From NCBI GenBank assembly GCA_036501285.1, contig DASYAO010000147.1:1545-65544 (forward strand): a stretch of DNA of 64,000 bases. Reading direction: 5' to 3'. Under the pieces are notes generated by a model. That model was not told where the DNA came from and did no database searches. It was given only the letters and a program-made list of their open reading frames with translations. Both the position numbers and the translations under genes were made by a program. Shown piece after piece: positions 29,291-64,000 of this stretch. Each line of letters begins with the position of its first letter. The stretch's first letter is position 1. The DNA comes from Gaiellaceae bacterium (lineage in GTDB: Bacteria; Actinomycetota; Thermoleophilia; Gaiellales; Gaiellaceae).

Positions 29291-29304
29291 CTTCGGGGGC
29301 CGGG

Positions 29305-29364
29305 GATGAAACGACGGTTACTTGTAGCACCGGTTATAAAGGAACGCACGCCGCCTGTCCAGCG
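29305..29364 (-). promoter_or_regulatory. Copy B of the conserved 60-bp promoter/leader element: -35 TGGACA (29356-29361), 17-nt spacer, -10 TATAAC (29333-29338), conserved leader
   Basis: 48/60 identity with 14853..14912 by hand alignment. It ends 14 nt upstream of the Rieske ATG at 29290. Confidence 0.6.
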
Positions 29365-29441
29365 CCAAGCCCTCTTACCCGGCGGCCTTGATCGCCGCGA
29401 CGACCGCGCTCGGGTTCGCCAGGTTCACCGTCGTGCCGACT

Positions 29442-29474
29442 GAGCTGCGCGTGGCGCGAGGCCGCGCGCAGCTC
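29442..29474 (-). terminator. GC-rich hairpin downstream of the glycan operon
   Basis: GAGCTGCGCG ... CGCGCAGCTC forms a perfect 10-bp stem, extendable to 13 bp with one G-U pair. It starts 23 nt after the stop at 29497. There is no clear U-tract. Confidence 0.55.
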
Positions 29475-29496
29475 AGCTTCGTCACTCGTGAGTTCG

Positions 29497-34915: not shown

Positions 34916-34916
34916 G

Positions 34917-38425: not shown

Positions 38426-39458
38426 CGCCGTTCTCCGTGCAGCCGCAGCTCTTGCGAACAATGAGGCCGGCCGGCAGCGCGAGCATCACGGGCTCGACAT
38501 CCGGCTGCTCGATCCGGCGCGACAGGAGCTGGGCACACTTCTCGCCGATCGCGCGCATCGGCTGGCGCGCAGTGGTCAGCGCGGGCGTGACATGACGGGC
38601 GAGCGGGATGTCGTCGAAACCGGCGAGCGCGACGTCACCCGGTACGTCGAGTCCCGCATGGGCTAGCGCGCGCATCGCCCCGACCGCCATCTGGTCGTTG
38701 CCGACGACGAGCGCCCGCGGCGGACGATGCCGTTTGCTGAGGAGCTGCTCGACGGCGTTCTCGCCTCCGCTCTCCGTGAAGTCGCCGCCGACCTCGGGTT
38801 GCTTGGGAGCGTCGAGGCCGGCATCGCCGAGTGCGCGCCGGTAACCGTTGAAACGAGCGCGAGCCTCCGCCGAGCGCTTCGGTCCCGCGACGAACGCGAC
38901 GTCGCCGAAGCCGTGCTCGAGCAAGTGCTCGGTCACCGCGCGCGCCCCGCCGAAGTTGTCGACGCAGATCGAGTCGACGTCAACCGATCCGCGACCGGCC
39001 GCGAAACAAGCGACCGGAACCCGAGCCGCCAACCGGCGCAGATCGGTCGCCGACAAGCTTCCCGCCATCACCGCAAGCCCGTCGACCTTCGTCGCCAACT
39101 CGAACACTTGCCCATGGCCCGAGACCGAATGCGTCGACGCCAGCAGAATCGCATCCCCTGCACGGCGCGCAGCGCGCTCGGCGCCGCGCACGATCTCATG
39201 CGAGTAAAACGGCGTCACTCCGTCCGACGTAGCGGACTCCTCCAGGTCGCAGAAGACGAATCCGAGGACTCCGAGCCGCTTCCGCGCCAGCCCGCGAGCC
39301 GCACCGTTCGCGACGTAACCGAGCCGCTCGATCACTGCACCGACGCGCTCTCGCGTCAGCTCGGAAACGCCGTTCTGACCGTGCAGGACTCGAGACACGG
39401 AGGCGATCGAAACACCCGCCTCGCGCGCAACCTCGTAGATCGTCACGCGACCACCCAT
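38418..39458 (-). CDS. LacI-family transcriptional regulator
   Basis: The HTH is VTIYEVAREAGVSIASVSRVLHG, followed by a periplasmic-binding-protein-like sugar-binding core. ATG 39458 places the HTH at the usual position. The longest ORF starts at GTG 39488. Confidence 0.8.
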   Translation of the reverse strand: MGGRVTIYEVAREAGVSIASVSRVLHGQNGVSELTRERVGAVIERLGYVANGAARGLARKRLGVLGFVFCDLEESATSDGVTPFYSHEIVRGAERAARRAGDAILLASTHSVSGHGQVFELATKVDGLAVMAGSLSATDLRRLAARVPVACFAAGRGSVDVDSICVDNFGGARAVTEHLLEHGFGDVAFVAGPKRSAEARARFNGYRRALGDAGLDAPKQPEVGGDFTESGGENAVEQLLSKRHRPPRALVVGNDQMAVGAMRALAHAGLDVPGDVALAGFDDIPLARHVTPALTTARQPMRAIGEKCAQLLSRRIEQPDVEPVMLALPAGLIVRKSCGCTENGDE

Positions 39459-39600
39459 CAACGTAAGCGCTTTCTCGACGGGTGTCACCGATCACTCAGC
39501 ACGCGAAACACAGGTCCCGCCTGGTCTCCTTTTGGGCCTACCTACCCAGAGGCAGAGCCGATCCACGGCGACGTCGGTGGCGAGCTCTGACCAGATCTCG

Positions 39601-42600: not shown

Positions 42601-45600
42601 GCGCCGCGATCGTGCCGGTCGGCAGCGGCTCCGGGCCGCCGCGCGGGGTGACGACGCCGAGGTCGCCGATCAGGATGTCGTTGCCGGCCTCGCCGTAGAG
42701 CGTGTCGTTGCCGAGGTCGCCGTGGAGTTCGTCGTCGGCCGGCCCGCCCCAGATCGTGTCGTTGTCGTTGCCGCCGTAGATCAGGTCGTTGCCGGCTCCG
42801 GTCGGATCGGTGGACGAGGTGATCGTCGGGACGCCGGCGGCCGAGAAGTCGACCTCGCCGTTGTCGCCGACGAGCAGGTCGTCGCCGTCGTCGCCGTAGA
42901 TCGTGTCGCCGGCCGTGCCGCCGAAGACGATGTCGTTCCCGTTGTTGCCATGGATGATGTCGCCGCCACCGTCCGCGGGGTTGGTCGTGAACGCGCGGGT
43001 CACCGACTGGTTCAGGACGCCGTAGCCGGACGCCACCGCTGAGCCGAAGTCGACCTCACCGTTGTCGCCGAAGATCAGGTCGTTGCCGTCGGCGCCGTTG
43101 ATCACGTCATTGGCGTAGCCGCCCAGGATCACATCGTTGCCCGCGCCGCCGTCGATCACGTCGTTGCCGCCGTCGGTCGAGTTCGTCGTCAGGGTGGAGA
43201 CGAGGGTTCCGAGCAGGTTCCCGGCATCCGACCGGTGGACGATGCCGTCGTCGCCGAGGATGACGTCGTTGCCCGGGCCGCCCTGGATCGTGTCGCCAAG
43301 CGGGCCGCCGAGGATGATGTTGTTGCCCGTGCCTCCGGTGATCTTGTCCGCGCCGCCGATGCCCGGGTTCAGCGTGAAGATGTCGAAGTCGCCGGACTTG
43401 CCGCCCTCGTCGACTTGGCCGTTGTCGCCGAGGATGATGTTCGTGCCGGCCGGCGTGAGGATGGTGTCGCCGCCGGTGCCGCCGAGGATGATGTTCGAGC
43501 CGCCGAGCGCGGTGATCGAGTCGCCCGCGCCGGTCGTGCCGTCGGCGTCGGCCGTCTGCACCTCGAAGACGTTCTCGGCCGCTGTGCCGTCGCGGAAGAC
43601 CGTGCCGTTGTCGCCGAGGACGATCGAGAAGCCCGAGCCGAGCGTGATCTGATCTGAGCCGAACCCGCCGAGGATGACGTTGTGCGTGCCGTTCAGGTTG
43701 TCGAGACCGGCCGTGATCACGTCGTTCCCGCCGAGTCCCGGCTGCGTCGTGAGGATGTCGTTCTCGGTCGTGCTGTTCAGCGTCACCATGCCGTTGTCGC
43801 CGAGGATGATGTTGTTGCTGCCGCCGTTGGCCGAGATGTTGTCGGCCCCGACGCCGCCGAGGATCACGTTCGTGCCACCGTTGGAGATGACCGTGTCGTT
43901 GTCGCCGGTGGGCGACGTCGTGTCGGTCGTGGCGACCTGGGTGATCTGCGCCAGCGTGCCGAACCCGATGCTGCCGCCGACGCGGCGGACGATGCCGTTG
44001 TCGCCGAGCACGACGTTCGTGCCTGAGCCGATCGTGATCCGGTCGGCGCCGACTCCACCGATGATGATGTTGCTCGTCAGGTTGGTGTTGCTGTCGGTGC
44101 CGGCCGTGATCAGGTCGTTGCCGCCGAGCGGGCCGGTACACGTCACGTCGTTCGGGTCGTCGGCACACGGCGTCGAGAAGATGTCGTTGTTGCTGGCGTT
44201 GTTCAGGTTCACGACGCCGTTGTCGCCCAGGATGATGTTCTGGCTGCCACCCAGCGCCTGGATCGAATCGGCGCCGACACCGCCCAGAATCACGTTCGTG
44301 CCGCCGTTCGAGACGATCGTGTCGTTGCCGCCGGTCGCGCTTGTCGTGTCGAGCGTGTAGAGCTGGACGACATCGGTGATCTGCCCGAAGCCGATGTTGC
44401 CGGCCTTCCGATGGATGAACCCGTTGTCGCCGAGCACGATGTTGTCGCCGGAGCCGATCGTGATCTGATCGGCGCCGAAGCCGCCGACGATGATGTTCGT
44501 CGTCGCGTTCTTGTTGTCGGTGCCGGCCGTGATCACGTCGTTGCCGCCGAGGGACAGTTCGGTCGAGGAGATGTCGTTCGCGACGGCGTTGTTCAGGTTC
44601 ACGATGCCGTTGTCGCCGAGGATGATGTTCTGGCTGCCACCCAGCGCCTGGATCGAGTCGGCGCCGACACCGCCGAGGATCACATTCGTGCCGCCGTTCG
44701 AGATGATCGTGTCGTTCGCCCGCGCCAGGTCGACGACGTCGAGCGTGTAGATCTGGACGACGTCCGCGATCGTGCCGAAGCCGATGTTCCCGGCGTTGCG
44801 GTGGACGAAGCCGTTGTCGCCGAGCACGATGTTGTCGCCGGACCCGATCGTGACCTTGTCCGCGCCGAAGCCCCCGATGATGATGTTCGTGGTCGCGTTC
44901 TGGTTGTCGGTGCCGGCCGTGATCACGTCGTCGTCGCCGAGCGACAGATCTGTCGAGTAGATGTCGTTCGAACCGGTGTTGTTGAGGTTCACGACGCCGT
45001 TGTCGCCCAGGATGATGTTCTGGCTGCCGCCCAGCGCCTGGATCGAATCGGCGCCGACGCCGCCCAGGATCACGTTGGTGCCGCCGTTCGAGACGATCGT
45101 GTCGTTGCCGCCCGTGAAGCTCGTCGGGTCGGTCGTGTTGATCTCGATCACGTCGGCGATCGTGCCGAAGCCGATGTTCCCGGCGTTGCGGTGGACAAGA
45201 CCGTTGTCGCCGAGCACGATGTTGTCGCCCGACCCGATCGTGATCTGGTCGCTGCCGACACCACCGATGATGATGTTGACCGTCGCCTTGGCGTTGTCGG
45301 TGCCCGCCGTGATCACGTCGTTACCGCCGAGCGGGCTCGAACAGGTGAACGTCCCGTCGCCGCACGGGCTGGAGAAGATGTCGTTCGACCCGGCGTTGTT
45401 CAGGTTCACGACGCCGTTGTCGCCCAGGATGATGTTCTCGCTGCCGCCCAGCGCCTGGATCCCGTCGGCGCCGACGCCGCCCAGGATCACGTTCGTGCCG
45501 CCGTTCGAGACGATCGTGTCGCCGTCGCCCGTCGAGCCCAGAACGTCGGTCGTGAACACCTCGACGATCTGGGCGATCGTGCCGAAGCCGATTTCGCCGC

Positions 45601-48600
45601 CGACCCGCTCGACGCGTCCGTTGTCGCCGAGCATGACGTTGTCGCCGGAGCCGAGGGTGATCGAGTCCATTCCGACGCCGCCGATGATCACGTTGCTGCT
45701 CGCGTTCGCATTGTCGACACCGGCCGCGATCACATCGTTGCCGCCAAGCGGAGTCGTGCAGGTGAACGTCCCGTCGGCGCACGGCACCGAGTAGATGTCG
45801 TTGTTGCCGGCGTTGTTCAGGTTCACGACGCCGTTGTCGCCCAGGATGATGTTCTGGCTGCCGCCCAGCGCCTGGATCCCGTCGGCGCCGACGCCGCCCA
45901 GGATCACGTTCGTGCCGCCGTTCGAGACGATCGTGTCGTCGCCGCCTGTCGCGCTCGTCGTATCGAGAGTCGTCACGGAGACGATGTCTGCGAGGCTGCC
46001 GAAGCCGATCTTGCCGCCGGTACGGCTGATGTAGCCGTTGTCGCCGAGCACGACATTGTCGCCGGAGCCGATCGTGATCTTGTCGTTGCCGAAGCCGCCC
46101 ACGATCACATTGCTCGTCGCGTCTTCATTGTCGATGCCGGCCGTGATCGTGTCGTCGCCGCCGAGTGAAAGCTCGGTCGAGAAGATGTCGTTCGAGCCGG
46201 CGTTGTTCAGGTTCACGACGCCGTTGTCGCCCAGGATGATGTTCTGGCTACCGCCGTTGGCGGAGATGAAGTCGCCCGCGACCCCGCCCAGGATCACGTT
46301 GTCGCCGGCGGCGCTCGTGATGCAGTCGACGGCGCCCGTCGCCGATGTCGTGTCGGTCGTGAAGACGCTGAGGATCGTCTCGCTCGGCGCCGGGCCGCGG
46401 TCGACCTCGCCGTTGTCGCCGAGGATCACGGCGTCGCCGGTGCCGGCCGTCAGCGTGTCGGAGCCGAAGCCGCCGATGACGATCGAGACGCCGTCGCCGG
46501 CGGTGATCGTGTCGTTGCCGCCCTGGTCGATCGCGATCGACTTGATGTCGTTCGGGCCGCTGACGTTGTTGAGCGCGACGCTGCCGTTGTCGCCGAGCAG
46601 CACGTCATAGCCGGAGCTGCCGACGATCGTGTCGCCCGCGGCGCCGCCGATGATCACGTCGTTCCCCGTGCCGCCATCGACGGTGTCGGGGGCGCCGAGG
46701 CTCGGGAAGGTCGATGTGACGAAGATCGGGATCCCCGCGGCTGCGAGTACCGCGCCGCTGTCACCGAGCTCGACGTTGTTGCCGGGGGTCCCGGCGAGCG
46801 TGACGCCCGGCTGCTGGTCGCCGTAGACGGAGTCGCTCGCGCCTTCGCCGATCAGGATGTCGCTGCCGCCGTTGCCGACGATCGTGTCGGTGCCGTCGAT
46901 CCCTTGCGAGACGCTCAGGACGACGAAGTTGTTCGACACGGGGATGTTCGAGTCGTCGCCAAGGCCGCCGCCGCCGCGGATCGCCTCGACGCCGGCCGTC
47001 GAGCCGATCGTGACGTTGCCCTGGTCGTCGAAGGTGACCGCCGACGGGTTGTCGACGAAGTCGATCCGGCCGCGGTCGCCGACCAGGATGTCGTTCCCCT
47101 TGCCGCCGGTGAGCGTGTCGTTGCCCGCGCCGCCGAAGACAACGAGCGGCAGCGACGACCCGGAGCCGTCGAAGACGTCGTCGTCGGCCGGAGCGGTCTG
47201 CGGGAACGTGAAGGTCTGGCTGTAGATGTGGGTGATCTGCACGAGCACGAGGGCCTGGAGCGTGGGCGCCGCGCCGCTGAAGACGATCGTCCCGTCGTTC
47301 GCGATCGTGGCCGCGACCGGCGAGCCGTTGACCGTCACCAGGAGCCCGTCGCCCGCCGAGTACGGGTTCGTAAGCTTGTGGCTCGTGCCGTCGTAGACGA
47401 ACTCCTGCGTCGTCTTGTGCTTGTCGTTCACCGTGACGTAGTCGCCGGCAGCCGGGCTGATCGTCAGCGCGACCGCGTTCAGCGACGGGATCAGGGTGTA
47501 CTCGTCGGACGAGAGCAGCGTGCCGTCGAGCGACGCCGTGACGACGTCGGCCGTCGTGTTGTAGTTGCCATAGAAGACCGGCTGGGTAAGCGCCTGGTAG
47601 CTCTCGTACGCGCCCTGGAGGTCGGCGACGAAGAAGCCACCCTTGGTCGAGTCGAGGTTCGCCGTGACCTTGTCGTCGCCGAGACCGGTGTTGAGCGTGG
47701 TGATCTCGGTCACGCCCGGCGTCGAGTGGACGCCGTTGACGGTGACCGTGTCGGCGCCGAAGCCGGTCCAGAAGGTGATGCCGCCGCCGAGATCGCCGCC
47801 ATGGCTTGCACCGAAGGTGATCGCCGCGGGAGCGAGGCCGGTGACGCCGCCGGTTTCGAGATCGATCGTCGGGCAGGTCGTCCCCACGTGTGCCTCGACC
47901 GTCGCGCAGGTTGCCGCGCCCTCGTCGCTGACCATCAGCGACTGGCCCGTACCGGCGCCCTCGTCGATCGCGAGCGTGCCGAGGATGCCGTCGGTGACGC
48001 CCGTCAGGTGGTCGGGCAGGTCGCCGACGCTCGCGTTCGCCTGCGATGAGACGTAGACGTGATCGTTGCCGCCGCCGGTGTTGAGGTTCGTCGTCGTGCC
48101 CGCGGTCGTGCTCTGGACGTTGAAGACGTCGTTGCCGTTGCCGAGATCGACGTCGAGGGTGTTGGCGCCGTAGTACTGGATTCCGCTCTCCTGGTTCGAG
48201 ACCGTGGCGGTGCCCTTCGTGAGACCGGATGTGTCGATGTAGGCGATCGAGGCCTTCGCGAACGCTCCCCGGAAGACGATCTGGTACGAGCTGCCGTGCT
48301 GCTCGACGGCGACGTTGTCGGTGAAGGGCAGCGCCGGGTTCGTGTTGTTCGGGTTGAGGATCGCGCTCACCGAGGCCAGCAAGGCCGACGCGGAGATGCC
48401 AACCGGGAGCGGGCCGGTGATGTAGTCCTGGAGCACGCCCTGCGAGTTGGGCAGGACGAAGTGGAGCTCGAAGCTGCCGGCGAGGTTGCCGGTCGCATCC
48501 GGCGTCAGGTCGATCGTCTGGACGTTGTCGAGACTCGGCGAGCGCGTGCCGTCGTCGACGAGAGCCGTCTGCACGCTCGCGGTCGCGCCGACCGCCGCCT

Positions 48601-51600
48601 TGAGCGTGCTGCCTGCGATCGCCGTGCCGACGCCTTGCAGCTTGCTGAGGTCGAGGGAGTACCCGACGCCGCCGACGACGACCTCGAACGCGTTGTTCGT
48701 ACCGCTGACCGTGATCCCCGAGATCCCGAAGACCTTCTGGAGCGCTGCCTGCACGTCCGGGGCCGTCGGGTTCGGCGAGAGCGTCGCGTCGCCGAAGCCC
48801 GGCGCGGTGATCACGAACGGCTGGGTCTGGCCCGCCGGCAGCGTGAGTGTCCACGTGCGCACCCACTGGAGCTGGTCGAAGTGCTTGCCCGCGCCGTCGC
48901 CTGCGAACACGATGGTGTAGGTCACCTGGTTACTCGCCGAAGTCGCGGTGACCGAAATGCCCGTGAGGCCGTAGAGCGTGTCGAGCGCCTGCGCCATGGC
49001 GGCGGCCGACGCCGCGAGGGCGGCCGGCGTGAGCGACGTGGGATACGTGAGCGTGACCGTGCTGGTGCTGCCGAGGTCGGGCGCCAGCAGCTCGAAGTTG
49101 CCGCTCGCGGCAGTGATGGTGACCGTCTGCTCCTCGGCCACCGTCGGCATCCCGAGACCGGTCAGCGTCGTGTCGGTCAACGTGCCGGTGGTCGAGCTCG
49201 GATCCTTCGAATCGTCGACGACGAGCGTGTCGTTTCCGGTGCCGGTGTCGATCGTGAGGAGGCCGGCGATCCGGTCGACGTTGCCGCCGTCACCGACAGT
49301 CACGGTGTCGCTGCCCGAGCCGGTGTCGACCGTCGTGTGGCCGGAGACGGTCTCGACGTTGATCGAGTTGTTGCCGTTGCCGGAGACGACCGACGTCGTC
49401 GCCTGACTCGTGCCGTCGATCGTGAAGGTGTTGTTGCCCTTCCCGAGATAGATGTTGACCGATTCGAGCGCCGAGTAGCTGATCCCGCCGGGGATGCTGA
49501 GGCCGCCGATTACGGTGTCGCCGCCCATGCCGAGTCCGGTGATCGTGCTCTCCGTCAGCGTCCCGTTGAGGTTGTTCGGATCGGCGGTGTCGTAGACGTT
49601 CAGCGTGTCGACCTGTTGCGTCTCGTTCACCGTGGTGTTCGGGTTGAGGGGAGCGACGTGGTACGGGTCGCCGGCGCTCGGGGTCTCGGGCTGGCCGTTC
49701 TGGTCGACGTCCCAGCCGGTCGTGAACGTGACCTGGGTCCCGGAGACGAGCGGCAGGTAAGTCGAGGTGACGCCCGCGGCGAGCCCATTCGTCAGGTCGC
49801 CGATCGTGCCGCCGCCGTTCCCCGTCGTCGAGAACGAGTCGGTGCCGGTGCCGCCCGTGAGAGCCCACTGGTCGGTCGAGCCGCCCGCGGTCGTGAAGCG
49901 GTACGACGCGAGCGTCCAGTCGAGGCCGCATTCGGTCGTCTCCGTCGGCGCCATCACGCAGGCGGGCGTGCCGCTGACGATGCCCTGGCCACCGCCGACC
50001 TCGGTGTTCGTCTTCGGGACGATCGTGAAGCTCACGTCGAAGGGGTTGCCGGGCCGCGAGAGCAGCAGGTCGCTGTCGCCGAGGAGGCCGGAGCGGAGCT
50101 GCGCGTTGAACGCGCCGGGAATCTGCTCGAGCAGCGCCTCGGCGAGGAGCGAGGCGATGTCGTTCGCCGTCGTGACCTCGACTGAGTAGGTGTGGCCGTC
50201 GACCGTCAGCTCCCACGTGTCGCCGAGGTTCGGCACACCTGAGAAGGCGACGTCGGCGGAGACCCACTTGAGCGCCGAGGCCGCGGCCGACACGACCGGC
50301 GTGCCGTAGAAGATCGCCTGACCGCTCAGCTGCTTCCCGTCGAACGTGAGGTTCACCGGGATGCCGGTCGCGCTCTCGAGCGACAGGATGTCCTGCGAGA
50401 CCGAGCCGACGTTGAGTGTCTCGCCGGCGGCCGAGCCGTCGAGGAACTCGACGGTGTACGAGTAGCTGTTCATCCGCGGGTCGAAGCCGGGGCGCTCGCC
50501 GTCCGTCGCGCTCACGTTCGTCGCGTTGAGGTCGGTGATCGTCGCGTCGCCCGCGTCGTTCGTGCCCGGGCCGTTCGTGCCCGCGCATGGCGTCCCGCCG
50601 ACGGCGCAGGTGAGCGTCCCGTCCGCGAGCGGAAGGTTCGTCTCACCCGGAAGCATCAGCGGGCTCGTCAGGAGCGACTGCGTCTGCGCCGAGTTGCCAC
50701 CGACGATCGTCACCGGGCCGCGGATCTGGTCGGTGGTGTTCGGGAGCGGCGGGAAGGAGAGCGCGTCGCCGCCGTCGACCGTGAAGTCGGGAACGCCGAC
50801 CACCGTGACCGACTGGAACTCGTCCCAGTCGGTCGAGTCGAACACGAGCTGCGGCGTGACGGTGGCGCCGCCCTGGCTGTCGGTCGTGATCGAGAACCTG
50901 GCGGCGACCTGGCCGCCGCCGACGCGGCTGATCGTGATCACGCGACCGGAGCTGCCGACGTTGTAGGTCTTGACGTCGATCTTCGACGCGATCGCCTGAG
51001 CGATCGAGGCCAGGGTGTCGCCGTAGATCGCGGTGTACGAGTAGACGTGGCTCGAGTCGAGGGTGAGCGTCCAGGTCTCGTTCATCGCCGGGAGACCGCC
51101 GAGTCCGACCGAGATCGAGGACGCATCGACCGATGCCGTCGCCGCGCCCTCGGTCGAGACCGTCAGGTACACCGAGGTCGGCTTGCCGTCCCGGCGCGAA
51201 ACCGAGATCACCGGTGCGGTCGAAGTGCCGCCGACGCCGGCGTTGTAGACGCCGGGTGCCGGCATCCCCTCGAGCTCGTTCGCGACGTCCTGCAGGCTGT
51301 CGCCGCTCTGGACGGTGTACGAGTACGCCGTCCCGTCGACGTTGAGCGTCCAGACCTCGTTCAGCGCCGGCGTCCCGCTGAGTGTCACGGACGAGCTCGT
51401 GTCGGTCCCGGTCACTGTCGCCGTGCCCTGGGTGTCGCCCGTGATCTGGAAGCCCGCCCGGAAGCTGCCGCTCTTCGCGTGGACGACGAGCGTCTCGGTC
51501 GTCGTGTTGACCGTGATCGTGTAGTCCGCGGTCGGAATCTTCGCCGCGAGCGCGTTCAGGATCGTCGTCAGCGTATCGCCGTCCTGGACGGTGTAGGAGT

Positions 51601-54600
51601 AGGAGGCGGAGCCGAGCGTGATCGTCCAGACCTCGCCGGTCTTCGGCGTTCCGGCGAGCTCGAACACCGCTTGCGGCGTGCTGACGCCCACCTGGATGAA
51701 GTCGTTCTGGCCGAAGTTCGAGTTCGGGTCGAAGGCCTCGGCCGAGTCGTAGGTCGGGGTCGCCTGCGGGACGACGTCGATCGTCACGGTCTGACTTCCC
51801 GTCAGCGGCGCGGTGAGCACGACCTGGTAGGTGCCGCTGTCCGGCGCCTTCGTGAGCTGCGTCTGGTACGCCGGGTCGTCGCTCAGGTTGTTCGCGATCT
51901 CGAACCGGCTCGTGATATCCGGCGCCGTCGACCAGCCCGGGCCGGCGATCGTGAAGAGCTGCCGCTCCGGGTCGTAGCCCGAGATCGTCGCCTGCTCGCC
52001 GACGCCGGTGCCGCTGACGATCGTCACCTCGGAGCCGACGAAGCTGAACTGGTTCGGATTCGTCGGATGGCCCTGGAGCGAGACGAACAGCTGGTAGTTC
52101 ATCCCGGTCGGGACCTGCTGGATGCCGTTGGTCTTGAACGTGTTGCGGACGCCGGCGGTGCAGAAGAACCCGAAGATCAGCTGGCCGCCGTCGGTGCACT
52201 GATCCCACGTGACGTTCGCCGCGACCTCGAGCTTGTAGGTGCCGGGCTGCGTGAAGACGTAGTCGATCAGCGGATCGGTGAGCGGATCAAGAGCGTTGCT
52301 CGGCTTGCCGACGTTGATGTTCGCGCCGAAGCTCGACCAGGTATCGGTGCACGTGCGTGAGCCGCCGGAGAGGTTGCAGGTGCTCGTCGCAAGCAGGTTG
52401 TTGTTCGCGTCGAAGAGCTCCAGCACCGGCAGCGCCGTGAAGCCGAGCGACTGGTTCTGCGAGAAGATCGGCGCGAGGAACGGGAAAAGCGAGACGAGCC
52501 AGGCGAACGCCGGATTGACGGCCGCAACATTGATGGCGCCCGTGACGTCGCTCGCGTCCGCGAGGTGGAACGAGCCCTCAGCGGAGCCGTTGCGCTCGGC
52601 GAGCGTGAAGACGAACGGGTCGACCTTCGACTCGTCGGTGAGCGTGAGCGTTCCGTCGGTCGTCCCGACGGCGTCGACGGCCGACTTGCCGGTGAGGAAC
52701 GCCGTGTGCACGAGGCTCGCGATTCCCTGCGCGATCGTGCCGAGCGTGCGGAGAGCCTCCTCGCTCGTCGGCAGCGGCAGCACCTGGTACGTGTACGTCG
52801 CGCCGTCGATCGTGAGCACCCAATTCTCGTTGTCGACGTAGGAGCCGGTCAGGTCTACGGTCGCTGTCTGGTAGTGGCCGCGAGTGTCCTCCGTCGCGCC
52901 CGAGTCGAGGCTCGAGGCGATGCGGAGCTCGGTCACCGAGATCAGGGCCGGGGCGGCCGGCGTCTTGAAGACGAGGTCGTCTCCGCCCGTGCCGGCCGAG
53001 ACCATGAAGTCCGAGTGGAGCTTCGCGAGCAGCGCCGCGATCGGGTTCGGTGCGGCTTCGGTCGTCGTGACGGTGTACGGCGTGCCGCCGACGGTCACCG
53101 TCCAGGTCTGGCCGGAAACGAATCCGGGCAGGCCCGGCTGGAGCTGCACGTCCTGCGTCCAGACGATGCTCGGCGTTCCGCTGACCGTGGCATTCGGCGC
53201 GTTCGGGTTGCGGGTGACCGCAAAGCTCGTGTTCAGCGTGCCGCCGGCGACCTTCGTCACATAAAGCGTCGAGCCGCTCGAGAAGGCGGTGTAGCCGGAG
53301 GCCGCGTCGATGGCGAGCGCGAGCGCGTGCGCGATCGTCGCGGTGGTGTCGCCCGCCACCGGGTAGTGGTACGGCGTTCCGTCGACCGTGACCGTCCAGA
53401 TGTCATCTGCATTGATGGCGGCAGCGCTGAGGGCCAGCGTGGTCGTCGCCGCGTTCGAGACGCTTGCGGTACCACCGGAGACGGCTCCCGCGCTCGTCGT
53501 GAAGCTCGCGCCTCCCACTGCGGTGATCGTGATCACGGCGTTGGCGCCGACCTGGCTGACGATCGTCGACGACTTGAGCTGTGACTGGAGCGCGGCCGCG
53601 ATTGTGTCGAGCGTGTCGCCGGTGCTGCCGTCGTCGACGGTATAGGTCGCTGACCCGGTGACCCCGCCGGTGACCGACACCGACCACGTGTCACCGGCGA
53701 CGGCATTGCCGGAGAGCGTCTCGACCAGAGCGGCCTGGTTCGCCGGCAGCTGCTCGACGACCTCGAGCGCGACCGTGATGCTGCCCGTGCCCTTGGTGCC
53801 GGTGATCGTCAGCGTGCCGTTGCTGTTCGTGACCGTGAAGTCCCCTGTGAAGTCAGCCGCGAGCGCGGATGCCGTTGTCGCGGTTTCTGTCTCGGTCGTC
53901 GCGCCGCTCTGGCTCAGCGTCAGCGTCAGCTGGTCGCCCGAGGCCACCGACGGCAACGCGTACGTGCCGCCCGAGGAGATCGAACCGTTATGGGCAGTCA
54001 CGGTGAGCGAGGCGCTGATTGCACTCCCACCGAGCTTGACGATCACGAGCGTCGGCATGCCCGGCGCGAGCGCGACTGTGTAAGCGGAGCCGATCGCGTT
54101 CGCGATCGTCGTGGCGTCGGCGCCCGCATTCGCGCCCGTCGCCGTGTACGGCGTCCCGTCGAGGGTCAGCGTGACGCTGTCGCCCACATACTGCTCGAGC
54201 GATACGACCTGCGCGGTCGCGGGACCGGGCGTGGCCGTGCCGCCGGCCGTAGGCGAGATGACGATCGTAAAGTCCGGCCCACTCGCGCGAGTGACCGTAA
54301 CGGAGTCACCGTCGACCTTCGCCGTGAACCCGCTCACGCCGTTGATCGCGCTCGCGAGGTTCTGAGTGACAGCGCCCGCATCGGCGGCGCCCGCGATGTT
54401 GTTCAGGGTCGCAATCGGTCCGTTCGTATCGGAGAGCGTCGCCGTCCACGTGTCGGCCGAGCCCGAGGTGACCGTGATCGTGTGCGAGAACGCGGTGCCG
54501 GTGCTCGCCGCGCCGGACGCCTTGACCGCGATCGTGCCGGTGAACGGCGTCTGGCTCGAGACCGTCAGCGCCGCGCCGACCGAGTTGACCGTGTAGCCCG

Positions 54601-57600
54601 TGCCGTGGAACGCGGCCTTGAGCGCGGTCGCGAGATCGGTCCCGCTCGTATCCGCGGCGGGTGCGGAGAAGGTCAGCGCAGTGCCGCCCGCGGCCGGCGT
54701 CAGCGAGACCGTCCACTGCTCGCCGACGAGCGGGCTTCCGGGCAGCGCGAAGGTCTCGCTCGTCCACGGGACAGTGGGCACCTCGCCTGCGACGGGCGTG
54801 CCGGTGATCGTCGCGTAGCCCTGCGGCGCCGAGCCTGCGACCGAGAACGAAACCGGCGTACCGCCGAGGTTCGTCAGCACGATCGAGGTGCCGGAGGGCG
54901 TACCCCCGGCCGCAGCCGCGAGGCACATGGCAAGTCCGGTCAGCGATTCCCCGCCCGGGCCGACCAGGCACTGATGGGCGGTCGAGCCGACGGTGAGCGT
55001 CCAGACCTCACCCGGGTTGGCCGAGCCGGCCAGATCGACCTCGGCGCTCGTGAAGTCAACGGGCGTCGTGTTGTCGGACTGGAGCGGCTCGGTCGAGGTC
55101 GTGATCGTGTCGGCCGCGTGCGCGAGCTGGACGGCGCCCGAGACGGTCTGACCGATCAGGTTGAAGCCGAGCGTCGTGTTCGAGATGTTCAGGTCGGCTC
55201 CGGCGGGGCCCGCGTTCTGGACGGTGACGGTGTACCCCGACACCGGGCCGGTCTGGATCAGGTTCGCGAGCGCCTGGGCGACCGTGGCGAGCGTGTCGTT
55301 CGCGCCGGCCATGTACTGGTAATCGTGGTCGCGGAGACCGAGCGTCCAGATGTCGCCCGCGTGCACGGTGCCTGTGAGGTGCAGGCCGACCTGGGTATAG
55401 AACGGGCCGGTCGCGCCGGTCGAAGAGGAGACGCTCTCGCTCGTCGGGGTCAGCATGTCCTGCGTCACCTGGAACGAGAAGACGTCGAAGCTGCCGTCGC
55501 CGGAGCCCTGGATCTCGGCGTACGGCGTCTGCCAGTCGATCGTGCCGCCGAACTGCGCGTCGCCGGCGCTCGTGTTGAAGAAGTTGTAGAAGTCGGCGCC
55601 GTTCGGCTGGCCGTCCTGGCCGAGCGGCTCGATGCTCTGCGCCGTCCCGAGCGTGTTGTTCGTCGAGTTCGACTGCACCGGGGCAGGAGCGAAGACGAAT
55701 CCGGCGATCAGGTGTCCGGGCGCGGAGACCTGCAGCTGGTAGGTGACGCCGTTCGGGATCGCGTTGGCGTAGAGCCAGCCGGAAACCTCGATGTAGTACT
55801 CGCCCGGCGTCGAGAACGCGTACTGCAGGAAGTCGTCGAGCTCGCTGGCGCTGCCGCCCGCGCCCTGGGAGGTCAGCGAATGGCCGGCCCCCGAGGCGAT
55901 CAGCGTGCCGGTCGAGTCGTAGAGCAGCAGGCGGCTCGCCCAGATCGGCGTGCCGTTCAGGAAGTACTGGCCGTTGTCGACGTCGAAGGTCGCCGGCGTA
56001 CCCGTCGCCTTGATCGCCGCGACCATCGCCGGCGTGACGTCGAACTTGTAGTAGTCGTTCGCGCCCGTTCCGGTCGCGTCGACGGTGATGTGCTGGACGT
56101 CGGTCGCGCCGAGGATGTTCGGATCGGGGTTCAGGCCCCACGTGCCGAGGTCGAGATCCTGGGCGGTCGAGATCGAGTCGTGGAAGTTGATCGAGTTGAT
56201 CTGCGACGTGCCGATCGTGCCGTTGAAGCAGTTGACCGGCGTCGTCGACACGGTGCAACCGGAGTTCGCCAGCTCTTCGACGAAGCCGTCGCCGACGACG
56301 ACGAACCCGGTCGGCTCGATCACGTTGGTCGAACCTGTCGGCTGGACGACGAGCACGTCGCCGGTCGTGTCGTCGGTGACCTCGACGTCCTCGGGAGAGA
56401 CGAGGGTCGAGCTGTTCGCGCCCGCGACCCACGAGTACAGAACCGCGGTTGCCGGGTTGAAGACGCTGCCCTTGTCGAGCGTGATCGTCCAGGTCTCGCC
56501 GATCGGCACGTTCTGATTCGCGTTCAGAGAGACGGCCAGGGTCAGCTTCGACCACGAGCTGCCGAGCGTCCCGAACACCGGCGCGCCGGCCGCTGTGCCG
56601 CCGTTCGGCTGGTAGGCGAGGGTCACCATCAGCTCGGTGTTGTCGCGCCGCTGGACGAGGATGTTGCTGCCAGAGGCTCTCGCGACATAGACGCCGCTCT
56701 GGGAGACGAGCTTGGCGAGGGCGGTCGCGATATCCGAGTTCATCAGCGTCGTCGTCTGCGACGGGCAGCTCTGCGTCGAGTCGAGGCACGGCGGGACGAC
56801 ATAGACGAACGGGGAGCCGTCGAGGTTGAGCGTCCAGGTGTCGCCCGTCGTCGGCGTGCCGGTGATCGGCGCCGTGACGGTGCCCTGATACGCGTGCGTC
56901 GACGCGTTCGAGTCGACCGTGAGCATCCCCGAGTCGCCGGCCGTCCAGGTGGCGTTGAACGCCGGTCCGGTCACGGTGACCTCGTTGCCCGAGACGCTCG
57001 TCTGGAACTGCCCGGTCGGGTCGCCCGCAACCGCGTTGGCGAGGCCGGATGCGACGTCGCCCGGCGTGACGCCGAGGAACGCGCCGCTGTCGGCCGGGTC
57101 GATCGCGTTCGAGATCCGCGAGAAGTGGATGCCCTTCACCGTCGAGCCCGGCGTCGCCCGGACGTAGACGAGCTGGATCATGTTCCAGGGGTGCGTGTCG
57201 TCGAAGGTGAGATCGACCACGGTGCCCCAGGTGAGGCCGTCGGCGGAGATCTGCGTGTCGCCGTCGCTCGTCGCCTCGAAGGTGACCGGCCCGACGGGCT
57301 GCTTCGTGAGGACGACGGCGTAGCTGTCGGATGCCGGCAGGAAACCGGGTTGGTTGGTCGAGACGCCTTCGGAAACGAGCAGCTGGTCTTCGACGCCGCC
57401 CTTGCCGGCGTTCGCGGTCGGGTCATACGGTGCGACGACGACGCTTGCCGTGTCGGCGTCGATCACGTCGACCGCGACGGTCTGCACAGGGATGCCGTCG
57501 TAGGGATCGCCGTCGACGGCGGTCGACCCTTCGACGACCGTGTGCTGGATCGTGACGCTGCGGTCGCCGGTGGCGACGCCGTCGGGTTTCGCCGCGACCG

Positions 57601-60600
57601 TCACGGTCACCGTCTGCGGCATGAACCAGTCGTCCGGCGTGAAGACCAGGGGCGTGCCGCCGAGCTGGCCGTTCAGGAAGATGTTCTGTACGCCTTCGAG
57701 CAGCTGGGACTGGCTCGGCGGCGTCGCGGACGCGGTCACGATCACGTTCTTCGTCGGCGCTTGCGTGAGCACGACCGTGTAGGTGTTGACGACGAGGCTC
57801 TGCAGGGTCGGAGAACCGTTCTCGAAGACCTGCAGCGGCGCGATCTGCGTGATGACGACGCCCGGCGCGTTCGCGTCTCCGACGTTCGCCGAGATGCCGG
57901 ACACCGTCGCGTTCGCGTATGCCGCAGCGTCCGCCGCCGACACGAGCTGTGTAATCAGGCCGCTGTGGCCGTTCAGGCTGTTGCTGACGACCGTGATCGG
58001 CTGGTCGGTGCCGGTGCCGCCGATATCGAAGGTGTCGCTGCCCTGGCCGCCGACGAGCTCGAGGTCGACCGTCGCGCTCGTGCTCTGGACGTAGAAGGTG
58101 TCGTTGCCGGCGCCGCCGTCGACGATCACCTTCTCGACGTTCGTGAAGCTCACGTTGAGGCCGGCGCCGAAGATGCCCTGGTCGGTGATGACGAACGTGT
58201 CGCCGAAGTCGGTGCCGATGACGACGATCGTGTCGAAGCCGCCGCCGCCGTCGATGTGCACGGGGGCGTCGACCGTGTAGCTGATGAAGTCGTTGCCGGT
58301 GCCGCCGTTGATGTTCGTGAACGGCGCGTCCGGATCGTTCGGGTTGACCTTGACGAACGCCTGAACCGTGAACGTGTCGTCGCCGTCCTGGCCGTAGAGG
58401 AAGACGTTCGCGAGGTTGTGGTAGACGGTGAACGTGTCGTCGCCGTTGCCGCCGTAGATCGTCGTGGCGAAGCTGACTCCGTTCGACAGGAAGCCGTCGG
58501 TGGTCTGCGTCGTGGCGAAGTAGTCGGCAGGCAGAAGGCCGTTCTCCGGGTTCGTCCCGTCACGTGCCGAGGCGTAGAGCTGGGCGACCTGGAAGTTGTC
58601 GTTGCCGTCGCCACCGAAGACCGTCGTCGGCACGAGGTTGTCGTCGAGCAGGAAGTTGTCGGTCGCGATGCCACCGAAGACTGTCAGGCCGCCGTTCAGC
58701 GAGCCGTCGTAGTTCACGCGCTCGACGACGCCGGTCAGGATCGGCTGGCCGTTCGCGTCCGTCCCGAACGCCGCGACCATGCCCGTGCCGGCAGCCTGGT
58801 TCGCACGGAAGAGGTAGTACGTCGGCGCGTTCGTCCCGAAGATCTCGAGCTGGTTCACGTCGCTCGTCGTGATCACGTCGGAGACGTTGATCACGGTCTG
58901 CGCGACTCCCGTCGAACCGGCCTCGCCGGTCAACCCGATCTCGTACAGGTCGCTGCCGGTGCCGCCCTGCAAGTTGAGCGTGCCGCCGATGCCGTTGACG
59001 AACGTCTCGTTGCCCGACTGGTCGTAGTTGACCGCGATCAGGTCGTTGCCGTTCCCGCCCTGGATCGTCGCAGTGCCGCCCGTCGAGCGGATGTAGATCG
59101 TGTCGTCGTAGTTGTTCAGCACCGGCGTCTGATCGCCGCCGTAGACGTTGAGGACGCTGCCGACGGGCGTCGAGTCGACGTAGAAGTTGTTCTCGCCGTC
59201 ACTCAGGCGCACGGTCAGGTTCTTGAAGTTCGAGTAGGAGATGCCGGCGGCATCCATGCCGAGCCCGAAGACGCTGCTCTCGTACAGCTGGCCCGCGCGC
59301 GTGCCCGTCTGCGGCGTCAAGTCGTTGCGGTCGTAGAGCTCGAGCGTGTTGTTGCCGCCGGGGCCGCCGTTCAGGCTCAGCAGGCCGCCGCCCTGGATGC
59401 CGTTGAGGGTGCTTCCCACCTTCGGGTCGGAGCCGGCGAGGAACGCCGTCGTCGAGCCGATGCGCACGTCGTTCGTGCCGCCCTGCGCGTTGACGTTGGT
59501 GGTGAACCCGATCGACTGGACCTCGACGTCGTCGTCGCCGCCGCCGGTGTTCACCGTCGTCGTCGTCCCGCTCGCGGTGCTCTCGACGATGAAGGTGTTG
59601 CCGGCGTTGCCGAGGTTCACCGTCAGCGTCTGGAGGCCGCTGTAGTCGAGCATCGAGGTGGGCGAGCCGAAGATGCCGCCGAGCTGGGAGCTCGAGAGGG
59701 CGCCGAAGTTCGACGCCGGATCGGTCGTGTCGTCGACCAGCACGGTCTCGGCGTCGTTTGCGTTGCCGTTGACCGTCAGCGTCGAGTTGATCAGGTTCGC
59801 GTTGCCCTTGACGTTGCTGAACCCGAGCGGCGCCGGCCAGAAGCCCGCCTCGCTGCCGACGTAGACGGTGTCGGGGCCGGCGGTCGAGTCAATCGTCGTC
59901 GGGCCCTGGATCGACCGCACCGCTACCTCGTTGTCGCCGGTGCCCGTGACGACGGTGGTCGAGCCGGTGTGGGCGACGGTGTCGTCGATCGTCGTCTGAT
60001 CGGCGCCGTTGCCGAGGTTGAGCGTGACTGAGCCGAGACCCCAGTAGACGATGTCGCCGGTCACGCCGCCTGCGCCGCTCGTCGACAGGCCGGTGATGGT
60101 CAGCTGGTCGACGGCCTGCGTCTGCTGCACCGGATCGGCGTTCGTGTAGTCGACCTGCTGGCCGCCCGTGTAGAGGATCGGCTCGCTCCCGAGGGTCAGG
60201 TCCGGCGCCCCGGCTGCGTACGTGACCTCGGTGCAGGTGTTGCCCGTGCACGTGTAGTCGGGCTCACCGCGAGCGTGGAGGACCGGGCCGGTGTAGGTGA
60301 CGGTGATGCTCTCGCCGAAGCTCGCGCTGTTCTTGAGTGCTGACTGCGTCGGGTTGAGCACGAGCGTCGTGCCGTTCGCGCCGCCGATCGTGAAATCGGT
60401 GCCCAGCGTCAGCTTCGTCGTGCCGATGAAGACCTGCAGCGTGCCGGCCGCAGGCTTCTCGTTCAGCGTGATCGTCTGCGTGACCGGCTGCGTGGTGCCC
60501 TTCGGCGGGTTCCAGTAGAAGCTCTCGCGCACGGTCTGCGTCGTCTGCGCCGGCGTGTAGACGATCACGTTGCCCTTCGTGTCGAACTGAAGCGCGGAGC

Positions 60601-63991: not shown

Positions 63992-64000
63992 CAGCTGGCC

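Follow-up and report, generated by a model that had tools for sequence, protein, structure and literature searches.

A sixteen-copy α/β module of a giant acidic RTX protein, probably distantly related to the external domain of phage tail sheaths

In the 64,000-nucleotide stretch of Gaiellaceae DNA analysed here (the window), a giant acidic RTX protein carries sixteen diverged copies of one module. Judged from structure models, the module is an autonomously folding α/β domain of ~80 residues, followed by a Gly/Thr-rich linker of ~12-15 residues. Probably, though this is not proven, it is distantly related to the domain of phage tail sheaths that faces outward and is non-contractile. The reading that we favour, and regard as fairly likely, is that such a sheath-domain relative was multiplied to 16 copies that act as a beads-on-a-string scaffold.

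Copies of the module in the giant protein

The giant open reading frame lies on the minus strand at nt 39650..64000 (stop codon 39650-39652) and encodes at least 8116 residues; because it is open at the window end, its N-terminus is missing from the window. Its GC3 is 0.94, and the product is strongly acidic (D+E 805 versus K+R 182). Searched by regular expression, the G-[DE]-x-W-T core turns up 14 times between nt 56845 and nt 50224. An HMM built from the window copies delimits 16 units, 14 with i-Evalues of about 1e-16 to 2e-31 and two that are weaker (residues 3273-3344, 9e-6; residues 3350-3407, 1e-3). In a non-circular test, an independent HMM of 70 modules, all from proteins of other organisms, recovered copies of ~90 residues at the same 16 places, 13 of them at i-E 9.5e-8 or better; residues 3618-3711 (6e-7), 3346-3423 (4e-4) and 2489-2575 (4e-3, partial) scored more weakly. 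With this HMM, 20 shuffles of the giant protein gave nothing better than E = 6.5. The original prediction of sixteen copies, laid out as a ten-copy array, a trio and three singles, is borne out by these coordinates, and its six example peptides are all found in frame 1 of the minus strand. Its orientation was corrected, the modules being encoded on the minus strand, and the start of the unit was moved back to ~12 residues before G-[DE]-x-W, so that the unit opens with a first β-strand of the pattern x-V-x-L-x-G. The phase of the unit is set by two isolated copies, at 49958-50260 and 56561-56881, in which this strand likewise precedes the W motif.

The copies are described below with the E-value of the window-copy HMM first and that of the independent HMM second. 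The single copies are module 1 (residues 2374-2480, nt 56561..56881; 3.8e-25, 4.4e-17), which has a Cys-containing insertion ahead of the helix; module 2 (residues 2489-2575, nt 56276..56536; 8.3e-16, 4e-3 for a partial match only), which is divergent and poorly conserved in the helix region; and the isolated module 16 (residues 4581-4681, nt 49958..50260; 1.5e-25, 3e-14). Ten contiguous copies occupy nt 52562-55393: module 3 (residues 2870-2960, nt 55121..55393; 1.2e-26, 9e-17), module 4 (residues 2985-3072, nt 54785..55048; 6.2e-24, 2.7e-11), module 5 (residues 3081-3173, nt 54482..54760; 1e-20, 2.8e-11), module 6 (residues 3170-3264, nt 54209..54493; 4.2e-19, 2.7e-12), module 7 (residues 3269-3349, nt 53954..54196; 9.3e-6, 9.5e-8), module 8 (residues 3346-3423, nt 53732..53965; 1e-3, 4.4e-4), module 9 (residues 3424-3518, nt 53447..53731; 1.1e-17, 2.5e-14), module 10 (residues 3519-3613, nt 53162..53446; 7.1e-27, 6e-24), module 11 (residues 3618-3711, nt 52868..53149; 5.9e-23, 6.1e-7) and module 12 (residues 3712-3813, nt 52562..52867; 5.4e-21, 3.8e-12). 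Modules 7 (GDSVTLTLDG) and 8 (GDQLTLTLS) lack the Trp, and module 8 is the weakest among the full copies. The group of three at nt 50837-51673 comprises module 13 (residues 4110-4203, nt 51392..51673; 8.9e-29, 1.7e-23), module 14 (residues 4202-4295, nt 51116..51397; 8.9e-27, 7.7e-20) and module 15 (residues 4295-4388, nt 50837..51118; 1.8e-31, 8.4e-23). In addition, a possible C-terminal half-module (residues 2308-2369, nt 56894..57079) adjoins module 1 on its upstream side and matches positions 34-92 of the independent HMM at i-E 1.8e-6. Residues 4698-4777 (nt 49670..49909), weakly matched at i-E 1.5e-3, may be a degenerate 17th module; both are on the minus strand.

Protein identity between the copies is only 18-38%, and no DNA-level tandem repeat was found in the module region; the copies are therefore old.

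Predicted fold of the module

The AlphaFold2 model of module 15 alone (94 residues) reaches a pLDDT of 91.5 and a pTM of 0.84. Its topology is β1-β2-β3-α-β4-β5-β6 plus a weakly predicted tail, with one helix and 6-7 strands. In the predicted order, β1 would be followed by the β2-β3 hairpin, which bears G-[DE]-x-W-T-[LIV]-T-[LV]-x-G, then by one amphipathic helix starting at D-T-L, and finally by β4-β6. When modules 13-15 were modelled together, on a shallow and untidy 12-row alignment, three separate units with the topology of the single-module model were obtained. With low-confidence linkers (residues 80-91, 174-185 and 265-279) and a pTM of 0.41, this model predicts no fixed packing of the units against one another.

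The question of whether the module folds autonomously is thus answered in its favour by both models. Since a single unit folds alone and the three-module model shows separate units joined by low-confidence linkers, a continuous β-helix is excluded. A broader form of this reading holds that no autonomous domain exists, only turns of one continuous β-solenoid or low-complexity Thr/Gly/Ala-rich sequence. The region is indeed rich in Thr/Ser/Gly/Ala, and the RTX part of the same protein is a solenoid; however, a 94-residue unit alone attains the above pLDDT and contains a helix, isolated copies sit between unrelated sequence, hundreds of other proteins contain the unit, with 2-29 copies each, and shuffled sequence yields no match. 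The reading is refuted, and practically no likelihood is left to it.

Nothing in Pfam-A or NCBIfam covers the module, whether in the window protein, in 17 homologous proteins or in 86 modules scanned singly, in agreement with the original failure to assign a named domain. On the other hand, the suggestion that the fold might be distinct did not hold, because the fold is already known: structure and sequence profile both give matches in the external domain of phage tail sheaths as well as in peripheral parts of T7-like nozzle and baseplate wedge proteins. The module is an unnamed domain family of known fold.

The resemblance to LysM

A literal resemblance to the first half of LysM, as originally described, does exist. 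In homologues as in the window protein, the Pfam LysM profile (PF01476) can be aligned with the Y-T-V-x-x-G-D-T-L-x-x-I-A stretch, and the shared part is a local β-strand, a G-D-T-L turn and an amphipathic helix. It could be argued from this that a LysM was strongly remodelled into the present module, which would bind peptidoglycan or chitin-type glycans, the alternative raised at the outset. Summed scores lie above the Pfam sequence cut-off (23.5-24.4 bits here, up to 48.8 in the homologue P0006), weak LysM matches occur in 6 of the 86 single modules, and comparing the profile with the PDB brings up the LysM chains of Ecp6 (E = 0.016) and YkuD (E = 1.8). However, only positions 1-15/16/21 of the 43 in the LysM profile are ever aligned, and taken one by one the stretches all fail to pass; the deep profile overlaps LysM chains at module positions 23-46 only, with E-values no better than 0.016. 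Compared with the βααβ LysM fold, the module lacks the second helix and strand as well as the N-x-L / G-Q-x-L-x-I-P half, and the element is instead embedded in a larger 6-7-stranded α/β domain with one helix. No LysM structure is found among the top 50 Foldseek matches of either model, and the whole-module matches go to phage sheath domains. A remodelled LysM is therefore very unlikely and largely refuted; the likeness is a shared β-turn-α element, not homology.

Relationship to phage tail proteins

The relationship to phage proteins was assessed along four independent lines: Foldseek against the PDB, Foldseek against BFVD, a profile against PDB sequences, and hhalign together with PHROG. The Foldseek ranking of PDB structures is headed by tail sheath proteins (Milano, 7-7-1, φTE and A-1(L)) and nozzle proteins (P-SCSP1u, Kp7 and T7), all with prob 1.0 and query TM-scores of 0.53-0.75; the same kinds of protein are retrieved from BFVD, with a TM of 0.80 to the 7-7-1 sheath. 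The 86-sequence profile matches gp76 of 9zdk (1e-5), the 7-7-1 sheath (2.2e-4), in which sheath residues 98-186 correspond to module positions 3-86 and thus to nearly the whole module, the P-SCSP1u nozzle (4.4e-4, nozzle residues 162-236) and the Milano sheath (9.7e-4). In hhalign, phage proteins reach probabilities of 84% (tail sheath) and 90%, and PHROG 165 "tail sheath" matches 19 of the 86 modules, at best with 2e-6. These E-values are modest (about 1e-3 to 1e-2 for structures, 1e-5 at best for sequences), which is why homology is called probable and not proven. The profile search also picks up de novo Top7-like designs, so part of the signal reflects a generic β-α-β sequence character.

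The Milano residues matched by the module fall within the external sheath extension domain, which comprises residues 91-203 of gp20 of this Agrobacterium phage (PMC10811340); the equivalent external domain of the φTE tail sheath is named D3 (PMC11972413). Like the module, the sheath domain is solvent-exposed, has ~90 residues and combines a β-hairpin with one helix and additional β-strands. It is, however, one insertion in the sheath body, whereas the module is free-standing and present in 16 copies in a cellular protein, and the aligned stretches of Milano and gp76 do not show the G-[DE]-x-W signature. No sheath core is matched by Pfam or NCBIfam in the giant protein, and no phage genes are found near its reading frame. 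T7-like nozzle proteins (tail tubular protein B) and Mu gp47-like baseplate wedge proteins probably carry related parts, although this too is not proven; they match with prob 1.0 and TM 0.65-0.74, but there the part is a single copy within a multi-domain tail protein. A more distant kinship to the variable outer domains of flagellin and FliD is possible only: Flagellin_IN ("Flagellin hook IN motif", PF07196) is found in 2 of the 86 modules (best 0.0025), FliD 6iwy has E = 0.018 in the profile search, and flagellin/FliD structures appear at low Foldseek probability, the scores being far under the family thresholds.

Conservation and possible roles

Positions conserved in at least 45% of the 86 modules are L6, G8, G13, E/D14, W16, L20, G22, V30, D34-T35-L36, A40, L43, A44, I47, Y/F52, A54, G58, L61, G68, F71 and G83. 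The alternating W16/L18/L20 in β2 probably point to the core. In the proposed picture, conservation would be confined to core-facing hydrophobic, glycine-turn and helix-cap positions, and the surfaces would vary freely among copies. In many homologous modules the helix ends with A-x-x-I-N, followed by a β-strand, a feature shared with the flagellin/FliD domains.

A role as scaffold or extender in a giant extracellular protein is most likely, judging from the architecture and by analogy with the Ig-like extender repeats of giant RTX adhesins. The sheath-like domain would have been multiplied within a protein of >8100 residues, and the copies, as beads on a string, would most likely make up a stalk or scaffold, long, stable and exposed to solvent, that keeps other portions of the protein at a distance from one another. 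The adhesins likewise combine tandem autonomous domains of ~100 residues, a giant acidic protein and RTX repeats, and the proposed job of their extenders is to hold other domains off the cell; region II of the Marinomonas primoryensis ice-binding adhesin contains about 120 Ig-like repeats of 104 residues each (PMC4083281). Their repeats, however, are near-identical Ig-like β-sandwiches rigidified by calcium, whereas the modules are α/β domains that are 18-38% identical and have no shown calcium site. Also unlike in these adhesins, neither genes for type I secretion nor a secretion signal at the C-terminus can be recognised: no such genes occur in the 39 kb downstream of the giant reading frame, and ~500 residues, Ig-like domains among them, lie C-terminal to the RTX region, an unusual layout for a type I substrate.

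The modules might instead be adhesion or docking units, each copy binding a glycan, cell-surface polymer or partner protein through its own surface. The related phage domains sit on the tail exterior, where they face outward and dock fibres or spikes: the T7-like nozzle has four named domains, the platform, fibre dock, β-propeller and tip (PMC10575957), and the Milano tailspike directly touches the sheath protein and is disulfide-linked to it (PMC10811340). A survey of phage sheaths described added non-core domains away from the tail tube that are not required for contraction, with stability or adhesion as proposed roles (PMC9230969). In addition, the copy surfaces differ strongly at 18-38% identity, flagellin outer domains and FliD are among the weaker fold matches, and the acidic E/D14 ahead of the Trp is kept in 78 of the 86 modules; this residue could mark a functional site, for example a metal site, for which a pure spacer would have no use. 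On the other hand, no patch on the surface stands out as conserved, all conserved positions but E/D14 look structural, and the phage domain is likewise without a known ligand. Sixteen diverged copies with no common polar motif fit a scaffold better than a shared binding site, and adhesion or docking is accordingly the less likely role, although a serious contender.

Lateral self-association of the modules, by which the giant protein would form a surface lattice or fibre, seems improbable. The related external domain of phage sheaths touches adjacent subunits, in Milano through an inter-subunit disulfide between Cys182 of the extension domain and Cys47 of the body domain (PMC10811340), and added domains were proposed to cement the assembled tail (PMC9230969); the giant protein is also very acidic and calcium-binding, like many surface-layer proteins. 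Against this, cysteine is nearly absent from the modules (none in 13 of the 16), the models suggest no interface, and units do not pack together in the three-module model.

Homologues and other parts of the giant protein

The family is large, with 1020 cluster representatives in at least 8 phyla, annotated as "hypothetical", "calcium-binding" or "RTX toxin-like", and its members carry 2-29 module copies each. In a collinear homologue of 33-45% identity, the modules, RTX repeats and Ig-like domains follow in the same order. The region of RTX-type calcium-binding repeats in the window protein spans approximately nt 41321..47323 on the minus strand (Pfam HemolysinCabind, 1.1e-32, 8 stretches; NCBIfam RTX_toxin, 8.6e-23) and includes six super-repeats of ~130 aa each at 43744-46255 (TRF period 390-417). 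The C-terminal Ig-like domains Big_3_5 (6.7e-9), Big_6 (6.3e-8) and Big_13 (2.4e-7) are encoded on the minus strand at nt 39653..40426. Two non-module inserts are encoded on the same strand, the first between module blocks (residues 2575-2870, nt 55391..56278), with no match in Pfam or among PDB sequences, and the second at residues 3813-4110 (nt 51671..52564). The inserts are weakly similar to each other (E = 0.002), and the second is kept in the metagenomic homologue P0001.

Sixteen diverged modules in a giant protein

The repeated modules lie in the product of a single minus-strand ORF (GC3 of 0.94), which runs from position 39650 of the window past its end at 64000, where the frame is still open. 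The window therefore covers 8116 residues of a protein that is longer than this, without the N-terminus, and residues are numbered here from window position 64000. On the plus strand, long ORFs of up to 2013 aa (53990-60031 and others) overlie the giant gene. The shorter plus-strand ORFs among them have a GC3 of more than 0.9, which mirrors the codon bias of the sense strand; the antisense ORFs are by-products of this bias and were rejected as genes.

The core pattern G-[DE]-x-W-T occurs at 14 sites in the giant protein, and an HMM made from these sites finds 16 units. Since an HMM built from the copies in the window is a circular test, the search was repeated with modules from elsewhere. Homologues came from scanning 1.84 billion representative proteins with a profile; 218 full modules were excised from 68 of them, and the independent HMM was built from 70 non-window modules only. 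This HMM recovers the same 16 places, in agreement with the number of copies given in the original prediction, whose six quoted peptides are all present. Thirteen of the 16 copies have i-Evalues of 9.5e-8 to 6e-24, and the other three have values of 6e-7 (residues 3618-3711), 4e-4 (residues 3346-3423) and 4e-3 (residues 2489-2575, a partial match); on 20 shuffles of the giant protein, no match was better than E = 6.5. The tryptophan is lost in the copies at residues 3269-3349 and 3346-3423. In addition, the independent HMM points to a candidate half-unit (residues 2308-2369) and a degenerate unit (residues 4698-4777). The layout first described also holds: a contiguous block of ten copies lies at 52562-55393 and a group of three at 50837-51673, and single copies occur at 56561-56881, 56276-56536 and 49958-50260. 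Identity between copies is 18-38%, and Tandem Repeats Finder detects no DNA-level tandem repeat in the module region, its repeats being limited to the RTX part of the gene. This implies that the module array is old, and a recent DNA-level duplication of the modules was rejected.

Predicted fold of the module

By modelling module 15 (numbered from the N-terminal side) with AlphaFold2, using the 16 copies as the alignment, a model with a pLDDT of 91.5 and a pTM of 0.84 was obtained. It contains strands at residues 2-7, 15-20, 24-29, 52-57, 60-65 and 73-78, a helix at residues 36-46, and a lower-confidence final strand at residues 86-91. The motif originally reported is real, but the unit begins approximately 12 residues before it, at the first strand in the model; the isolated copies also have this strand, which fixes the phase of the unit. 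When modules 13-15 were modelled together, three units of identical topology were obtained (pTM 0.41, from a shallow alignment), with low-confidence segments at residues 80-91, 174-185 and 265-279. In this model, the three modules are beads on a string, without predicted fixed packing. The reading that there is no autonomous domain, and that the repeats are part of a continuous β-helix, is at odds with both the single and the triple models, and we consider it scarcely credible. The models instead show the module as an autonomous, repeated and diverged α/β domain.

Such an array would form a long exposed stalk or scaffold in the giant protein, a role in which it may be likened to the Ig-like extender repeats of giant RTX adhesins (PMC4083281). 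That the modules drive lateral self-assembly was also considered and, beside the bead-like arrangement of the model, seems improbable. The conserved positions of the module (L6, G8, G13, W16, L20, G22, V30, D-T-L 34-36, A40, L43, A44, I47, Y/F52, A54, G58, L61, G68, F71 and G83) look like core, turn and helix-cap residues, with surfaces that are free to vary. The modules might instead be diversified adhesion or docking units, which is possible but doubtful. One acidic residue, E/D14, is conserved in 78 of 86 modules, and it may have a binding or metal-site role.

Partial resemblance to LysM

The original prediction had found the module unassignable to a named domain and had proposed either a LysM-like unit or a distinct fold. 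Scans against Pfam-A 2025 and NCBIfam 20.0 agree with the first statement, since no whole-module model lies above the cut-off: no model of either collection covers the module in the giant protein or in 17 homologous proteins, and nothing exceeded the threshold when 86 modules were scanned singly. The sole recurrent Pfam signal on the module is that of LysM (PF01476), over profile positions 1-15, 1-16 or 1-21 of 43. In the giant protein, the homologues and the single modules, the second half of LysM (N-x-L ... G-Q-x-L-x-I-P) never aligned, and no single LysM stretch passes the cut-off. The flagellin hook IN motif (PF07196) matches two of the 86 modules, with a best E of 0.0025, and does not pass its cut-off either.

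Compared with the Pfam cut-off of 20.9, the summed LysM scores are 23.5-24.4 bits in the giant protein and up to 48.8 bits in the homologous protein P0006. Tandem partial matches (positions 1-16 of 43) that sum above the cut-off were seen in the giant protein and in the homologues P0006, P0049, P0013, P0061 and P0090. Because such partial matches add up past the sequence cut-off, they are a likely source of false LysM annotation in this family, and proteins with these modules can be mislabelled as peptidoglycan-binding, though no single LysM domain is present.

The βααβ fold of LysM, in which two helices lie on a two-stranded sheet, is absent; the AlphaFold2 module has one helix and six to seven strands. 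No LysM structure occurs in the top 50 Foldseek matches of either the single-module or the three-module model. When the profile of 86 modules was compared with the PDB, LysM chains were matched only at module positions 23-46 (Ecp6, 0.016; YkuD, 1.8). The LysM resemblance is a common strand-turn-helix element, and a remodelled LysM, the reading to which the partial Pfam signal would point, is very improbable. What stands of the original alternatives is an unnamed autonomous module; the LysM relation does not stand, and nor does the new fold, as phage tail sheaths match.

Probable relation to phage tail proteins

With the module model as the query, Foldseek searches of the PDB returned the tail sheaths of the phages Milano, 7-7-1, φTE and A-1(L) and the nozzle proteins of P-SCSP1u, Kp7 and T7, all with a probability of 1.0 and query TM-scores of 0.53-0.75, where the comparison is that of a predicted module model, not an experimental structure, and the structural E-values of the phage matches are modest (1e-3 to 1e-2). 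In BFVD, the matches were sheaths, tail tubular protein B and a Mu gp47-like wedge protein, with a TM-score of 0.80 to the 7-7-1 sheath, and the three-module model returned the same phage proteins as the single module.

Sequence profiles point in the same direction. Among PDB sequences, the best match to the 16-copy profile was the Milano tail sheath, from an Agrobacterium phage (E = 0.049, residues 99-183). The profile of 86 modules is deeper, which improved the search: it matched gp76 of 9zdk (E = 1e-5), the 7-7-1 sheath (E = 2.2e-4, module positions 3-86 with sheath residues 98-186), the P-SCSP1u nozzle (E = 4.4e-4), Phi92 gp130 (E = 9e-4), the Milano sheath (E = 9.7e-4) and the φTE sheath (E = 4e-3), part of this signal being generic β-α-β character, because Top7-like designed proteins also score with this profile. 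The sheath matches (7-7-1, Milano and φTE) span module positions 2-86, and hhalign gave 84% against the Milano stretch and 90% against the gp76 stretch. In PHROGs, the "tail sheath" family 165 is matched by 19 of the 86 modules, at best with 2e-6, and the unannotated family 13532 by 20. Judged by sequence profile, the resemblance of the module to the external domain of phage tail sheaths is remote but consistent, and in the predicted model the two have the same three-dimensional fold. The matched range of sheath residues presumably recalls domain I of T4 gp18.

In the Milano sheath, the matched residues fall in the external sheath extension domain, residues 91-203 (PMC10811340), and the equivalent part of the φTE sheath is the external domain D3 (PMC11972413). 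According to a survey of phage tail sheaths, added (non-core) domains lie away from the tail tube and are dispensable for contraction, and stability or adhesion has been proposed as their function (PMC9230969). As for a whole contractile sheath protein, with its conserved core of handshake and body domains, no sheath family of Pfam or NCBIfam matches the giant protein, and no tail genes lie among its downstream neighbours. These are metabolic and transport genes, on which ground it was rejected that the locus derives from a prophage or from tail genes.

It is conceivable, if rather unlikely, that the module is a mobile surface-decoration domain common to phage tails (in the sheath exterior, nozzle and wedge) and giant bacterial surface proteins, with a shared binding job. 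In either setting it might, for instance, attach weakly to flagella or to polymers of the cell surface. Ig-like domains are shared in a similar way, and Milano, 7-7-1 and φTE, which provide three of the best-matching solved sheaths, are flagellum-dependent phages. If this were true, the more than 1000 uncharacterised bacterial proteins that contain it would be adhesins that attach by a phage-type module, and those phages would use the exterior of their sheath actively in host contact. Through the match, surface proteins of cells are linked to the little-understood external sheath domain of phage tails, which offers an experimental handle for both.

Spread of the module family

The profile (HMM) scan retrieved 1020 representatives at E <= 1e-3, 406 at E <= 1e-10 and 103 at E <= 1e-30, and the 150 best homologues of the scan have 2-29 matched stretches each. 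The taxonomic spread was read from the names of cluster members, and the named matches fall in eight phyla: Gemmatimonadota, Thermodesulfobacteriota, Planctomycetota, Proteobacteria, Actinomycetota, Methylomirabilota, Chloroflexota and Verrucomicrobiota. In the databases, the labels of the named carriers are "hypothetical", "beta strand repeat-containing", "calcium-binding" or "RTX toxin-like"; these proteins come from Gemmatimonas, Thermodesulfobacteriota, Planctomycetota, Methylophilaceae, Gaiellaceae, Methylomirabilota, Limnocylindria and Prosthecobacter. The Prosthecobacter protein WP_300199519.1 is an example of a cultured homologue. A word-indexed protein search found just four relatives with a three-module query and two with a profile, and an 869-aa piece of the giant protein found no relative among the GTDB species genomes.

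A collinear homologue with 33-45% identity lies on a metagenomic contig, L081 (ENA ERZ25039458 contig_30164), where modules are followed by RTX repeats and then by Ig-like domains. The homologous giant gene is called there as many short ORFs, collinear with the giant protein. The splitting is likely due to frameshift errors of that assembly; giant genes of this family are therefore probably under-counted in gene catalogues. Contig L082, which carries the homologue P0153, was rejected as an orthologous locus, as only one 27%-identical stretch was found.

A literature search found no earlier description of the module repeat in giant proteins and, to judge from Pfam, NCBIfam and the literature that was searched, the family is undescribed, a known fold in a new setting. 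The module is thus a sizeable unnamed domain family, of which much of the sequence consists in giant proteins that otherwise lack annotation. With a model based on the 86-module alignment, thousands of residues that are now "hypothetical" would be annotated; the module lends itself well to such a new family model and to experiments, from which the phage sheath exterior would also become better understood.

Other parts of the giant protein

The giant protein is strongly acidic (D+E 805 versus K+R 182) and contains RTX nonapeptide calcium-binding repeats (Pfam HemolysinCabind, 1.1e-32, 8 stretches; NCBIfam RTX_toxin, 8.6e-23), which mark it as a calcium-binding protein. Six RTX super-repeats of approximately 130 residues each (GGTNVILGGVGADSIQALGGSQNIILGDNGVVNLNN...) at 43744-46255 on the minus strand form DNA tandem repeats with a period of 390-417 nt and 74-79% DNA matches (Tandem Repeats Finder). 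They are far more alike than the 16 modules, which suggests that the RTX part of the gene expanded later. A Pro/Trp/Cys-rich stretch, PGPWLCPCGPHGPWPGPWPWPCCGPPGSGNWLWPAFGPPFGPPFGPDH, at 41084-41227 follows the RTX region and has no family match; after it, three to four Ig-like domains (Big_3_5, Big_6 and Big_13) make up the extreme C-terminus (39653-40426). Approximately 500 residues, including the Ig-like domains, come after the RTX region, an unusual layout for a substrate of type I secretion. Neither by eye nor with NCBIfam is a sortase, PEP-CTERM or T9SS signal visible at the C-terminus. RTX repeats are common to the giant protein and the giant RTX adhesins that are secreted by type I systems. 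Genes for such a system (ABC exporter, membrane fusion protein and outer-membrane factor) were not found in the 39 kb downstream.

Three inserts of approximately 200-300 residues separate the module blocks (55391-56278, 51671-52564 and 50258-50839). They carry the motifs DYYKF, GEYYIEV/GTYKLEV and YQLQVS/YQLFVS, from which a resemblance to pre-peptidase C-terminal (PPC) β-sandwich domains is suspected; no match was found in Pfam (E <= 0.5) or PDB sequences, and inserts 1 and 2 are weakly alike (E = 0.002). In the N-terminal part, a DUF642-like stretch at 61682-61987 remains below the threshold (23.5 bits versus a cut-off of 27); DUF642 has a carbohydrate-binding-like fold. Repeats of approximately 30 residues of the form G-A-V-P-L-Y-L-D-A-x-G-N-P-T-T, recognized by eye at 62186-62707, are a second repeat family of the giant protein, distinct from the modules.

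Neighbouring genes

Downstream of the giant gene, on the minus strand at 28187-39488, lies a cluster for the uptake of sugars or oligosaccharides that has no evident link to the giant protein. It encodes a regulator of the LacI family, a GH39 glycosidase, the binding protein, two permeases and ATPase of an Opp-type ABC importer, a glucoamylase-like protein and, in addition, a Rieske oxygenase. An exact look-up of one neighbouring transporter protein gave no recorded entry. No phage or secretion genes occur among the downstream neighbours, and the others are metabolic. One of these, an aconitase (16351-18759, minus strand), is 100% identical to a protein on the JGI metagenome 3300036780 contig Ga0376652_0001125 (49.5 kb). 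Its best named relatives are from Actinomycetota, at approximately 62% identity, so that the source is probably an uncultured, deep-branching lineage that resembles actinobacteria and has no close species genome in GTDB. Another relative, at 78%, lies on a JGI contig of 124 kb, where the order of the genes is conserved.
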